Shown: piece by piece, positions 28,665 through 40,038 of the stretch
Numbering within the stretch: position 1 is the stretch's first letter
How the letters are laid out: every line of letters starts with the position of its first letter
NCBI GenBank assembly: GCA_963807625.1
Contig: CAWECN010000020.1
Location: 118,270 to 182,269, forward strand
Direction of reading: 5' to 3'
DNA length: 64,000 bases
From: an uncultured Gammaproteobacteria bacterium
Lineage (GTDB): Bacteria > Pseudomonadota > Gammaproteobacteria > SZUA-229
Program-made: the position numbers and the translations under genes
The notes under the pieces: model-generated
Database searches by the model: none
Told to the model about the DNA's origin: nothing
Seen by the model: the letters and a program-made list of their open reading frames with translations, nothing else

Positions 28665-28740
28665 TGGTGGGCCGTGAGCGACTTGAACGCTCGACCATCG
28701 GATTAAAAGTCCGGTGCTCTACCAACTGAGCTAACGGCCC
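28665..28740 (-). tRNA. tRNA-Lys (anticodon UUU)
   Basis: The reverse complement reads GGGCCGTTAGCTCAGTTGGTAGAGCACCGGACTTTTAATCCGATGGTCGAGCGTTCAAGTCGCTCACGGCCCACCA. It folds as a cloverleaf with a 7-bp acceptor stem, a CTTTTAA anticodon loop and an encoded CCA. Very close to E. coli tRNA-Lys. Confidence 0.9.
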
Positions 28741-37802: not shown

Positions 37803-38555
37803 TTATAAGGACAACTGTGCCATCACTTCATCAGAAAAGTCCGCATTGGTGTGCACGTCCTGCACATCATCCAGATCTTCCAGTGTATCGATCAGACGCA
37901 TTATCTTTTCCGCATCATCCAGTGTAACTTCGATCAGGTTCGCTGCTTTCTCTGTCACCTCGGCCTGTTCTGGTTCAAATCCCGACTCCGTCATGGCATC
38001 TTTTACCGAGCTAAAATCTTCATACGGTGTCACTACCTCGATAGCGCCTTCGTCGTCTGTCACCACATCCTCCGCACCTGCCTCCAGTGCAGCATCCATA
38101 ATGGCATCTTCATCACTGTCAGCCGGATAGATCAGCATACCGATACGGGAGAACATGTATGCGACGGAGCCATCGGTGCCGAGGTTTCCGCCCGCCTTGG
38201 TGAAGGCGTGACGCACTTCGGATACAGTGCGGTTACGATTATCTGTCAGGCAATCGACCATGATAGCCGTCCCAGCCGGGCCGTAACCTTCGTAGCGGAT
38301 CTCTTCATAATTAGTGTCATCACCTTCTCCAGTACCACGTTTTATAGCTCGTTCGATGGTGTCGCGGGTCATGTTAGCGCCCAGCGCTTTATCCACTGCC
38401 AGCCGCAGGCGTGGATTGGACGCCACATCTCCGCCACCGCCACCACGGGCCGCAACAGTGATCTCCCGTATCAGCTTGGTAAAGATTTTTCCGCGTTTTT
38501 TATCCTGGGCAGCCTTGCGATGTTTGATGTTCGCAAATTTACTGTGGCCAGCCAT
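37803..38555 (-). CDS. yebC: YebC/PmpR-family transcriptional regulator
   Basis: 250 aa, [28 protein letters not shown]...; conserved family upstream of ruvC. Confidence 0.95.
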
Positions 38556-38686
38556 GAATTGCTCTCCGAATTATTCTAATTATTAGAGTTTCAATATAGA
38601 GCGCAGTCTAACACTGCGGTGGAGGTTCGGCTAAAGATTTAGGGGGATTTTCGATTTTTTCGGGGCTGGTGCCTGGTATTTACTTG

Positions 38687-39344
38687 ATACTTTTGGTTTG
38701 GCCTTGCGGTTCTCGCACCGCGGGCGAGGTACTCTTTTGCAATAGCCCAAAAGAGTGCCCAGAAAAGGCCACCACGTCAGCTGCGCCCCTGTAGAAAGCA
38801 CAGGGGTTCCCATTGAGGCATTACTGTTATCATGCTGTGCCAGAACTCGCGGAAGACGCTCAGACAGCTGGCGCAGAAAGCCCATGATAACAGTAATGCC
38901 TCAATGGCTAGCTAAGGTGGGTTGAAGGTCAAAGTCAAAAGCAAAAACTGGTATTGCTGAAGATTCACTAATCCTTTCGTAAGCGTTGGTTTTTGTTTTC
39001 GTTTTTTTCTCCCTTTTTGTTTGCTGAATTCATCACTGTTGGTAGAGCAAATTCGCCATGGACGGCGAATTTAGTCCTGTGCGCCCGGATGGCGCATCAG
39101 GACGGGCTCGTTGGCAACAGTGATGAATTCAGGCACCCCGAGTGCTTTTCTCGGGGCAAACGAAGTGGGATGGCATTCTTTTGGTTACTTTTCTTCTGCT
39201 ACTGAAAGAAAAGTAACTCGCCGTAAAAGGCGAAACTCACGGTAACAATCCACGTACCTAAGTAGCGTTAATAAAAGAGAAATAATGAAATCAGAAAAGA
39301 GTACCTCGCCCGCGGTGCGAGAACCGCAAGGCCAAACCAAAAGT
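38687..39344. repeat. ~0.66-kb non-coding nested-palindrome element bounded by 51-bp perfect inverted repeats (MITE/PATE/REP-cluster-like, or a large structured RNA)
   Basis: The outer IR is 38687-38737 against 39294-39344, matching 51/51. Internal perfect IRs are 25 bp (38809-38833/38882-38906), 18 bp (39023-39040/39114-39131) and 12 bp (39183-39194/39205-39216), plus several 5-9-bp hairpins. There is no credible ORF; it sits in an 820-bp intergenic gap. Confidence 0.7.
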
Positions 39345-39375
39345 ACCAGGTTAATACCAAAAAAATGGAGCCATA

Positions 39376-40038
39376 TCAAGCCGGCTCAGCATCAAGCAAC
39401 GGCGTGGTCGTCTCCCGGTCAAACATCCCGGTCTGCAGGAATATAATCACCTGCTTCGCCACCTTACCTGACATCAATATACTCAAATGGCTCTCACGTA
39501 CTACGATGGAATCAGTCGCGCCCTTAAGCATGGTCTCTTCGACCGAAACCGTACCATCATGCGGCAACTTCGGCCCACCCGCGACCAGCCCCATTCCAAT
39601 CGGGATATTACCTGCGATCACACCCACATCCTGCCAGCCTTTCCATTTCGGCACATCGCCCGACAAACCATTGACATGGCTCTGCCCCAGCATCCAGCGT
39701 GTCATCGGACTGGCATTGATACGTTTACCTACCGCACTGCCATTCACTGGCGATGCCAGCAATACGACACGACCTCTTTTGTTAAAGGGAAACTGATCGA
39801 ACAGATGTAAGGTCACGATGCCGCCAAAACTGTGTGCGACGATATGCACTACGGGAGCTTCGATTTTATTGATGAACTCGTTGAGTTTGACGGCGATCTC
39901 AGCCGGTGGTTTGCCCCATACGTGATAATTAAACATATGGCACTCATAACCGGCTTCAGACAAGCGATTACGTAGTCGCAGCAGGTCGACGCCCGCTACG
40001 CTCCATAGACCATGCACTAAAACAACTGCTTCACGCAT
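39376..40038 (-). CDS. alpha/beta-hydrolase-fold esterase/lipase
   Basis: 220 aa with the serine-hydrolase nucleophile elbow (VAHSFGG) and an N-terminal VLVHGLW oxyanion region. Confidence 0.7.
   Translation of the reverse strand: MREAVVLVHGLWSVAGVDLLRLRNRLSEAGYECHMFNYHVWGKPPAEIAVKLNEFINKIEAPVVHIVAHSFGGIVTLHLFDQFPFNKRGRVVLLASPVNGSAVGKRINASPMTRWMLGQSHVNGLSGDVPKWKGWQDVGVIAGNIPIGMGLVAGGPKLPHDGTVSVEETMLKGATDSIVVRESHLSILMSGKVAKQVIIFLQTGMFDRETTTPLLDAEPA

Follow-up and report, generated by a model that had tools for sequence, protein, structure and literature searches.

A gene-free, apparently mobile repeat upstream of yebC in an uncultured gammaproteobacterium is built from two inverted modules, one of which holds the TwoAYGGAY motif

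The Correia elements of Neisseria and the enterobacterial ERIC/IRU repeats are miniature inverted-repeat transposable elements (MITEs) with structured, transcribed bodies. REP, BIME and REPIN repeats, which are mobilised by RAYT, are thought to act as single strands and lack target duplications. Transposons of the IS200/IS605 type carry structured RNAs at their ends, namely the TnpB reRNA and the IscB omega RNA (HEARO), and many copies lack an open reading frame (ORF). The PATEs related to IS200/IS605 have subterminal hairpins on one strand at both ends and no terminal inverted repeats. Here, a repeat element is described that fills the spacer between yebC and an alpha/beta hydrolase gene in a 64,000-nucleotide stretch of DNA from an uncultured gammaproteobacterium (GTDB lineage SZUA-229; GenBank assembly GCA_963807625.1, contig CAWECN010000020.1, positions 118,270 to 182,269). 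This stretch at its full length is called the window, and L-numbers (L001, L133 and so on) denote the genome or metagenome stretches that were compared with it. One of the two arms of the element contains the TwoAYGGAY RNA motif. This motif was described from the human gut, Clostridia and gamma-proteobacteria, with a P1 stem that is often very long ("e.g. 24 base pairs") and with no function assigned, and was rated a probable RNA by Rfam and in the original description (Weinberg et al., 2010; PMC2864571).

The spacer between yebC and the hydrolase gene is 821 bp long and is the largest intergenic gap among the approximately 60 genes of the window, the runner-up being 451 bp, as the preliminary description of this DNA had held. 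It had been read as a gene-free nested palindrome bounded by 51-bp perfect inverted repeats. The absence of genes was borne out, the only ORFs being short (41-84 aa) and overlapping the palindromes, whereas the nesting was not: alignments show two homologous modules back to back instead. As judged from these alignments, the element is a pair of predicted structured modules, here called the A arm and the B arm, placed in inverted orientation, and not one large palindrome. Terminal inverted repeats are present, but they lie one base further on (+1) than had been given and extend over 65 nt at 95% complementarity, not 51 bp. A 48-nt stretch of the repeat is an exact match on both arms, a result obtained by chance in none of 100 shuffles. 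Because the modules are homologous, the "51-bp perfect inverted repeat" can be recognised as the shared start of the two arms, comprising the terminus, the core and half of hairpin h2. All of the inner perfect palindromes exist, again shifted by +1, as do both short hairpins, CCCCTGT..ACAGGGG and CCCCGAG..CTCGGGG. In the alignments, each arm is ordered inward from its end as a terminus, a core hairpin (h1), a hairpin h2, and a junction helix that encloses a hairpin h3 and a long variable domain. In the B arm, unlike the A arm, the core is followed by 70-85 additional nt and by another hairpin that resembles it (h1'), and the long domain of this arm is either h4-like or TwoAYGGAY. Within the family, arms are mostly combined as polar A+B elements, with some A+A.

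Covariation was assessed for 70 pairs in an unbiased MAFFT alignment of 40 A arms. Standard pairs were found in 97.9% of the cells. Double-sided changes were observed at 27 of the 70 pairs, compared with 10.3 +/- 2.1 in column shuffles, none of 500 of which reached 27, and controls with slid partners gave 7-11 pairs with double changes. The pairing was also found to be strand-specific. On the centre-to-terminus strand of the A arm, G.U occupied 232 cells and A.C occupied 17, and the counts are reversed on the other strand; in h2' of the B arm only G.U was seen and no A.C. For the same 40 copies, the RNAalifold consensus amounted to -91.4 kcal/mol for the outward strand vs -48.8 kcal/mol for the inward strand, and folding compared with shuffled sequence yielded z = -7.8 for the A arm and -7.6 for the B arm. 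The helix enclosing TwoAYGGAY also covaries. The strand asymmetry is not circular, because it was first seen with a structure that had been derived from the opposite strand. A mutation bias as its source was considered and rejected, because the unpaired columns show no matching transition bias, which indicates selection. Strand-specific covariation in both arms implies that the arms work as single strands, and the comparative evidence shows each of them to be under selection for a single-stranded fold, the 3' end of the folded strand lying at the terminus of the element; the selected strand is - for the A arm, which points into yebC, and + for the B arm.

It had been argued that perfect arms, as opposed to compensated ones, speak against a structured RNA and for an entity at the DNA level. 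That argument is not supported: the same stems show compensatory changes with the G.U excess given above across 40-91 copies, and the 18-bp palindrome turned out to be the P1 stem of an Rfam RNA family. Selection for a single-strand fold is compatible with palindromes that are perfect in one copy. A mobile repeat and a compensated structured RNA had also been posed as alternatives, a choice that was to be settled by covariation among homologous copies; a strong compensatory signal was found, and both descriptions hold here.

The Rfam model of TwoAYGGAY (RF01731) matches the + strand of the B arm with 70.0 bits, against a gathering score of 43, over model positions 1-168, its full length. P1 coincides with the 18-bp palindrome, perfect and with an extension, and the "two smaller hairpins" noticed earlier inside it are the YGGAY-loop hairpins. 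The first loop reads AUGGAC (39058-39063) and the second CCGGAU(G), that is, YGGAY without the leading A. The full model, the long P1 and the two YGGAY-loop hairpins are thus all as in the original description, in which, however, the second loop is AYGGAY and not CCGGAY as in the window, and no mobile or repeat context was given, whereas the motif forms here only the apical part of an arm that is about 350 nt long within an inverted two-arm repeat. Rfam found TwoAYGGAY in 7 of 20 related elements, at the same place and in the same orientation. In every element in which it was found, about 150 nt separate it from one core, and it is directed outward to the terminus on that side. TwoAYGGAY forms the variable domain of one arm in about a quarter of the copies, and most arms of the family hold h4 where TwoAYGGAY sits in others. 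Among 26 distinct copies, several pairs show three or four Watson-Crick types, and the ratio of G.U to A.C is 67:9 on the Rfam strand. The rest of the element, the A arm included, has no credible match in Rfam, even at E <= 5.

The seed members of TwoAYGGAY from Psychromonas ingrahamii (NC_008709), as given in supplementary file 99 of the original description, are multi-copy and are followed by GGCAUUCUUUUGGUUACUUUUCUU...AAGAAAAGUAAC.CGCCGU..GGCG (PMC2864571). The hairpins in that file are the same h2' and h1' as those at 39172-39233 of the window. The Rfam family therefore covers no more than the apical part of a conserved, larger module, in cultured gamma-proteobacteria as well. Within the first 200 of the 438 supplementary files of that paper, the terminal core was not found. 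P. ingrahamii has also been listed independently as one of the genomes with the most repeated intergenic "mobile promoter" families (PMC3488235).

How widespread is the element? The copy in the window belongs to a gene-free, non-autonomous mosaic repeat that measures about 0.6-0.75 kb and exists in many copies; this copy lies behind the 3' end of the hydrolase gene. The core (22/24-mer of GCGGTTCTCGCACCGCGGGCGAGG) was found in 15 genome stretches and 110 metagenome stretches. The 15 genome stretches are from species representatives and are all uncultured; they include six contigs of one Gammaproteobacteria metagenome-assembled genome (MAG), Sulfurifustaceae, Muproteobacteria and others. Two inverted cores lie 0.45-0.78 kb apart, in the same layout as in the window, in about 50 cases, and an nhmmer search with the left half of the window element returned 110 full-length copies, 91 of them distinct. 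Many core matches are located less than 300 nt from a contig end, as is expected because repeats break assemblies. The viral contigs scanned contained neither the core nor the local TwoAYGGAY variant, so phages in that collection do not carry the element. Plasmids, phages and E. coli genomes returned no BLASTN match to the element, and the 63-nt core plus h2 gave a single chance-level match against plasmids and phages. Of 22 polar elements, 20 have their B end next to the 3' end of a gene; for the A end, this holds in 14 of 20. The B end of the window copy meets the stop codon of the hydrolase gene and its terminator-like hairpin.

In GC-rich MAGs of Sulfurifustaceae and Muproteobacteria, 24-34 nt at the core are identical, while everything from h2 onward is kept only as structure, and the unit at these loci (L005:6200-6450, L006:7480-7700 and L007:2040-2150) is a single arm. 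This combination points to sequence-specific recognition of the core, which is likely a protein-binding site. The unit in L007 sits between the terminator of one gene and the start of a lipoprotein gene.

Presence or absence at the yebC site was compared among relatives, as the preliminary description had proposed, and the site was found to be filled, empty or carrying the element in inverted orientation. In relatives with YebC of 96% identity (L137/138), the element is present in the same orientation and the contigs break inside it; at 95% (L016-18) it is present and the contigs end about 80 nt inside; at 93% (L136) it is present and the contig ends inside. At 91% (L133-135) it is fully assembled, in the opposite orientation and with different termini, so that the TwoAYGGAY arm stands beside yebC and reads into it, and the B insert is absent (L133:1100-2000, also L134 and L135). 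At 90% (L019/20) a gene for a 426-aa protein with a MATCAP domain (PF08014) takes the place of the element, and at 89% (L021/22) the element is absent and only an unrelated spacer of 212 bp is found. The spacer upstream of yebC is an insertion hot spot. The orientation in L133-135 could be due to an independent insertion, or to inversion or replacement by recombination between copies; because the termini differ, inversion in place is not demonstrated. An assembly artefact, which had been considered, does not account for the structure, because independent assemblies of relatives carry it: those of L133-135 read through it and those of L137/138 read part of it. The repeat family is apparently mobile, because it is multi-copy in MAGs and metagenomes, contigs break inside it, and one site is filled, empty or inverted among relatives. 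L053 and L099 share an identical A-side flank and a near-identical element and differ in their B-side flanks, the B side of L099 being a hydrolase 3' end as in the window; this mismatch reflects either a chimeric assembly across the repeat or recombination between copies.

Three longer copies (L001, L127 and L086) were found to hold genes between the arms, inserted in the A+T-rich centre (Table 1).

The termini are less uniform than the core. Their general form is GGTGTTTAGYATTTAC, 7 variable nt, and then TTTTAGTTAGGCMTT, and that of h2 is GGTACTCTTTTG / CAAAAGAGTACC. At the termini, conservation is highest in (R)YATTTAC. In 93 of 119 ends, exactly 22 nt separate the end of its TTAC from the core, although the 7 nt behind it vary freely, and the 20 nt outside the termini are T-rich. 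TTAC is also the cleavage/target tetranucleotide of IS608, which may be a coincidence. In h2, one pair is C.A on the + strand (G.U on the - strand) in 32 of 91 copies. In h4, double changes were observed at 13 of 24 pairs, G.U is the commonest state at several positions, and some copies contain an optional apical hairpin of about 18 nt. Two further pairings were examined and rejected. Pairing of the two termini of one element with each other is not indicated, as ends of the same element match at 27.3 of 45 positions vs 24.9 of 45 between elements. A single-sequence fold also paired the terminus with the inner end of the arm in a long-range helix, but the pairs of this helix are invariant and its G.T pairs lie on the wrong strand.

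At many B ends, the terminus, core and B insert are repeated in tandem once or twice more, at a spacing of about 150 nt (for example, L009:2976/3125, L035:436/592, L039:416/562 and L066:505/661). In L009, the only tandem case read in detail, the outer unit ends abruptly in the loop region of h1'. Because it breaks off there, this loop region suggests itself as a candidate point of strand exchange or cleavage.

How does the element compare with the systems described so far? In the manner of a MITE, it measures about 0.7 kb, has no ORF above 84 aa, carries a 65-nt inverted repeat at 95%, and recurs in 125 dispersed stretches and in up to 6 contigs of one MAG. It resembles Correia and ERIC elements in being small, non-coding, multi-copy and intergenic, with terminal inverted repeats and long hairpins. 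It differs from them in that it is 4-6 times longer, shows little conservation at its outer ends, has yielded no target duplication and is composed of two multi-helix modules, each with strand-specific covariation. With REP, BIME and REPIN repeats it shares the extragenic position behind gene 3' ends, the mosaic of hairpin units and the inverted pairs, which occur here in A+B, A+A and tandem arrangements. REP units, however, comprise 20-40 nt with a conserved 5' tetranucleotide and flank their cognate RAYT gene, whereas the arms comprise 280-350 nt and contain junctions, no Y1/RAYT-like ORF lies near any copy, and no similarity was found in Rfam or BLAST. The TnpB and IscB RNAs are structured RNAs of 150-300 nt at an element end, the TnpB reRNA being directed outward with its 3' end at the flank. 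The element nevertheless differs from TnpB and IscB RNAs in that Rfam gives no match to HEARO or IS605-orfB, no tnpB or iscB lies nearby, and the two modules are inverted and bear terminal inverted repeats. A guide function of the arm RNAs would be pure speculation from this analogy. Overall, the earlier suggestion of a MITE- or REP-like composite holds in that the repeat is multi-copy, gene-free and apparently mobile; a specific origin from IS200/IS605 or RAYT was not demonstrated. The terminal inverted repeats and the opposite selected strands at the two ends do not match a PATE.

Integron attC sites are also folded single-strand sites with strand selectivity and GTTRRRY-like boxes, GTTAGGC lying beside the core in many copies of the present element, and they are also associated with small defence cargo. 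Reading the GTTAGGC boxes as attC was rejected, as they are reversed (GTTAGGC...GCCTAAC vs RYYYAAC...GTTRRRY). In addition, attC sites measure 57-141 bp and occur in arrays beside intI, whereas the element measures about 700 bp, about 5 times the largest attC, and is found, unlike integron cassettes, as single scattered copies with no arrays and no integrase. The TwoAYGGAY part was known before. Neither the A arm nor the core, the two-arm chassis, the mobility pattern or the cargo was found in Rfam, three annotated collections or the searchable literature, and they appear to be new; the core sequence in particular is absent from the searchable literature.

The explanation put forward here is that the element specifies two outward-reading structured RNAs of about 280-350 nt, one A-type and one TwoAYGGAY-type, which would act with a factor encoded elsewhere. 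These RNAs would probably be made from transcripts crossing the element, because no promoter is visible. As the arms are inverted relative to each other, the far arm would be read in the folding-competent sense whichever side transcription comes from; in the window, read-through on the - strand from aspS-nadA-hydrolase would give an A-arm RNA just upstream of yebC. The element would spread by means of an enzyme supplied in trans and could carry genes between its arms. That the folded species is RNA, with single-stranded DNA (ssDNA) as the alternative, is mildly favoured, because G.U is found more often than any other state at several pairs, a pattern that suits RNA better than DNA, helix lengths vary, apical hairpins are optional, and one arm is a recognised RNA family. 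A further step would be to regard the repeat as a mobile element of a class not yet described, in which two outward-reading RNAs take the place of a protein gene as the active parts. These RNAs would recruit or guide a trans-encoded enzyme for movement or retention, and the same chassis would shuttle small anti-phage genes (Abi, DUF4238, restriction-modification) between genomes. This step is offered tentatively, and we consider it rather improbable as it stands.

Several results weigh against this explanation. No sigma-70-like promoter was found in the element and no conserved promoter in its centre. Target-site duplications of 4-8 nt, which had been suggested as a check, were not enriched over mismatched-pair controls in 47 elements. 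No mobilising enzyme was found near the copies: tnpA or RAYT genes are absent from and beside every copy, no protein other than housekeeping orthologues recurs beside them, and no autonomous parent insertion sequence (IS) with the same ends was detected, the longer copies being without transposase. These searches covered about 140 loci (850 kb) and not whole genomes. With no target duplication and no mobilising enzyme, mobility is argued only from distribution and site polymorphism, and nhmmer detected a single copy within the 64-kb window. The perfect stems of 18-25 bp, and the arms themselves, which are mutually complementary over about 100 nt, would be substrates of RNase III. Strand specificity alone is no proof of RNA, because G.T is the best-tolerated mismatch in folded ssDNA. 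The searchable literature gives no context or function for TwoAYGGAY, and a 2026 preprint (10.64898/2026.09.22.753630) may assign one.

Some of these results would be expected if the element worked at the level of ssDNA, with the arms as cis-acting folded ssDNA ends, on the strand whose 3' end is at the terminus, for a single-strand enzyme encoded in trans, much as REP/REPIN elements and integron attC sites are recognised. Such an enzyme could be of the HUH/Y1 type (RAYT or an IS200/IS605/IS91-like transposase) or another ssDNA recombinase, and TwoAYGGAY would then be a DNA structure as well. We regard this reading, the main rival, as possible, if doubtful. The strand-specific pairing with tolerated G.T, the lack of both a target-site duplication and a promoter, and the unusual length of the perfect stems are all consistent with it, as are the conserved TTAC at a strict 22 nt outside the core, the extragenic position at gene 3' ends with a mosaic build like that of BIMEs, and the tandem terminal units at B ends, which look as if they came from failed termination. 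No HUH/RAYT gene was found in or beside the approximately 140 loci mentioned above, however, and G.U(T) is the majority state at several pairs, which is common in RNA and costly in DNA hairpins. Terminal inverted repeats are normally missing from elements moved by HUH enzymes, both ends of which are used on the same strand, whereas opposite strands are selected here, and TwoAYGGAY has been rated a probable RNA in both of the sources given above.

An ordinary MITE of the DDE type, in which the 65-nt inverted repeats would be transposase binding sites and the inner palindromes incidental or nested insertions, is quite unlikely. The small, non-coding, multi-copy build and the terminal inverted repeats agree with it, and the cargo versions resemble MITE-flanked composite units, but neither an enriched target-site duplication nor, among 125 loci, a parent IS with these ends was found. 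The outermost 40 nt are the least conserved, with the two ends of one element hardly closer to each other than ends of different elements (27.3 vs 24.9 of 45), and the strand-specific compensatory evolution of the interior is not required of a double-stranded binding site. Most improbable of all is that the element is not a selfish repeat but serves the host in regulating the yebC-ruvCAB operon, be it as a leader RNA, as a terminator or insulator or as an invertible switch. In favour of such a role, the sense strand of the A arm runs into yebC, at each end the core and the TCTTTT behind it look like a weak terminator that faces inward, and the element has opposite orientations at this one site in the window and L133-135. 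Against it, the same element lies beside dozens of other, unrelated genes, usually downstream of them, the relatives with 89-90% identical YebC retain the operon without it, and there is no adjacent recombinase gene and no promoter inside. For an invertible promoter switch in particular, no promoter-like site and no recombinase among the neighbours was found.

The gene labels yebC, ruvCAB, nadA and aspS given earlier were all confirmed; the immediate right neighbour is the hydrolase gene, not nadA, and nadA and aspS lie beyond it. Flank homology with relatives ends after GGCTAAAGATTTAGGGGG on the yebC side (about 38646) and restarts exactly at the hydrolase stop codon (39376), which sets the outer limits of the insertion. 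The terminator-like hairpin of the hydrolase gene consists of the last codons of the gene paired with element-side bases, and L133 has no such hairpin. The sole other Rfam match in the window is a tRNA gene at 28668-28740 (-) with 72 bits.

Table 1. Coordinates of the element, its parts and neighbours in the window, and of genes found in related stretches
Feature	Position	Strand	Remarks
yebC	37803-38555	-	
Alpha/beta hydrolase gene, 220 aa	39376-40038	-	Immediate right neighbour of the element
Whole inserted non-coding element, outer limits	at most 38647-39375		Flank comparison with L133, L137, L016 and the empty site L021
Recognisable family consensus	about 38667-39366		
Terminal inverted repeat	38674-38738 vs 39295-39359		
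A arm, module of about 280 nt	38667-38947	-	Selected strand runs from centre to terminus, towards yebC
A-arm terminus	38668-38705		GGTG..TATTTAC block (TTAC ends at 38683), 7-nt variable stretch, CTTTTGGTTTGGCCTT; profile of 119 ends
A-arm core 24-mer (hairpin h1)	38706-38729		GCGGTTCTCGCACCGCGGGCGAGG; recurs exactly or nearly exactly in other stretches
Hairpin h2	38728-38759	-	GGTACTCTTTTG / CAAAAGAGTGCC; compensatory CG<->TA and GC<->TA changes
Junction helix P2, enclosing h3 and h4	38772-38920	-	38772-38783 with 38909-38920; pair types CG/TA, AT/GC
Hairpin h3 (CCCCTGT..ACAGGGG)	38786-38806	-	Alignment support
Domain h4	38810-38907	-	25-bp outer stem (38810-38834/38883-38907, spacer 48 nt), variable compensated middle, inner stem (38835-38843/38868-38876)
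Centre	38948-39008		A+T-rich, poorly conserved; cargo site in longer copies; alignment of 11 full elements
B arm, module of about 350 nt	39009-39366	+	Selected strand runs from centre to terminus
TwoAYGGAY motif (RF01731), at the place of h4	39009-39147	+	P1 = 18-bp arms 39024-39041/39115-39132
Helix around TwoAYGGAY and h3'	39016-39164	+	39016-39023 with 39157-39164; counterpart of P2; pair types TA/TG, CG/TA/TG, TA/AT/CG
Hairpin h3' (CCCCGAG..CTCGGGG)	39136-39156	+	
Hairpins h2' and h1'	39184-39233	+	h2' 39184-39217 (12-bp arms 39184-39195/39206-39217); h1' 39218-39233 (TCGCC gtaaaa GGCGA); covariation
B insert, about 70-85 nt	39234-39303		Between h1' and the terminal core; none in A arms; alignments
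B-arm core 24-mer	39304-39327		Inverted orientation
Terminator-like hairpin and T-run of the hydrolase gene	39368-39387	-	Straddles the gene/element boundary
DUF4238 cargo gene	L001:1397-2260		Without PADLOC match
Abi_alpha cargo gene (PADLOC PDC-S47)	L127:850-1689		Anti-phage defence type
Type II cytosine methyltransferase and restriction enzyme cargo genes	L086:1717-3985		Anti-phage defence type
MATCAP-domain gene in place of the element	L019:4502-5782		

What does the element mean for the family and its hosts? TwoAYGGAY, an orphan since 2010, is now linked to an apparently mobile repeat, in which it is an interchangeable domain of a larger conserved module. The comparison fixes the boundaries at full length, tells which strand to probe, and adds a hitherto undescribed second arm, in which 27 pairs covary, and an invariant 24-nt core; one locus is known in filled, empty and inverted versions. 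Such repeats break the metagenome assemblies of these sediment Gammaproteobacteria.

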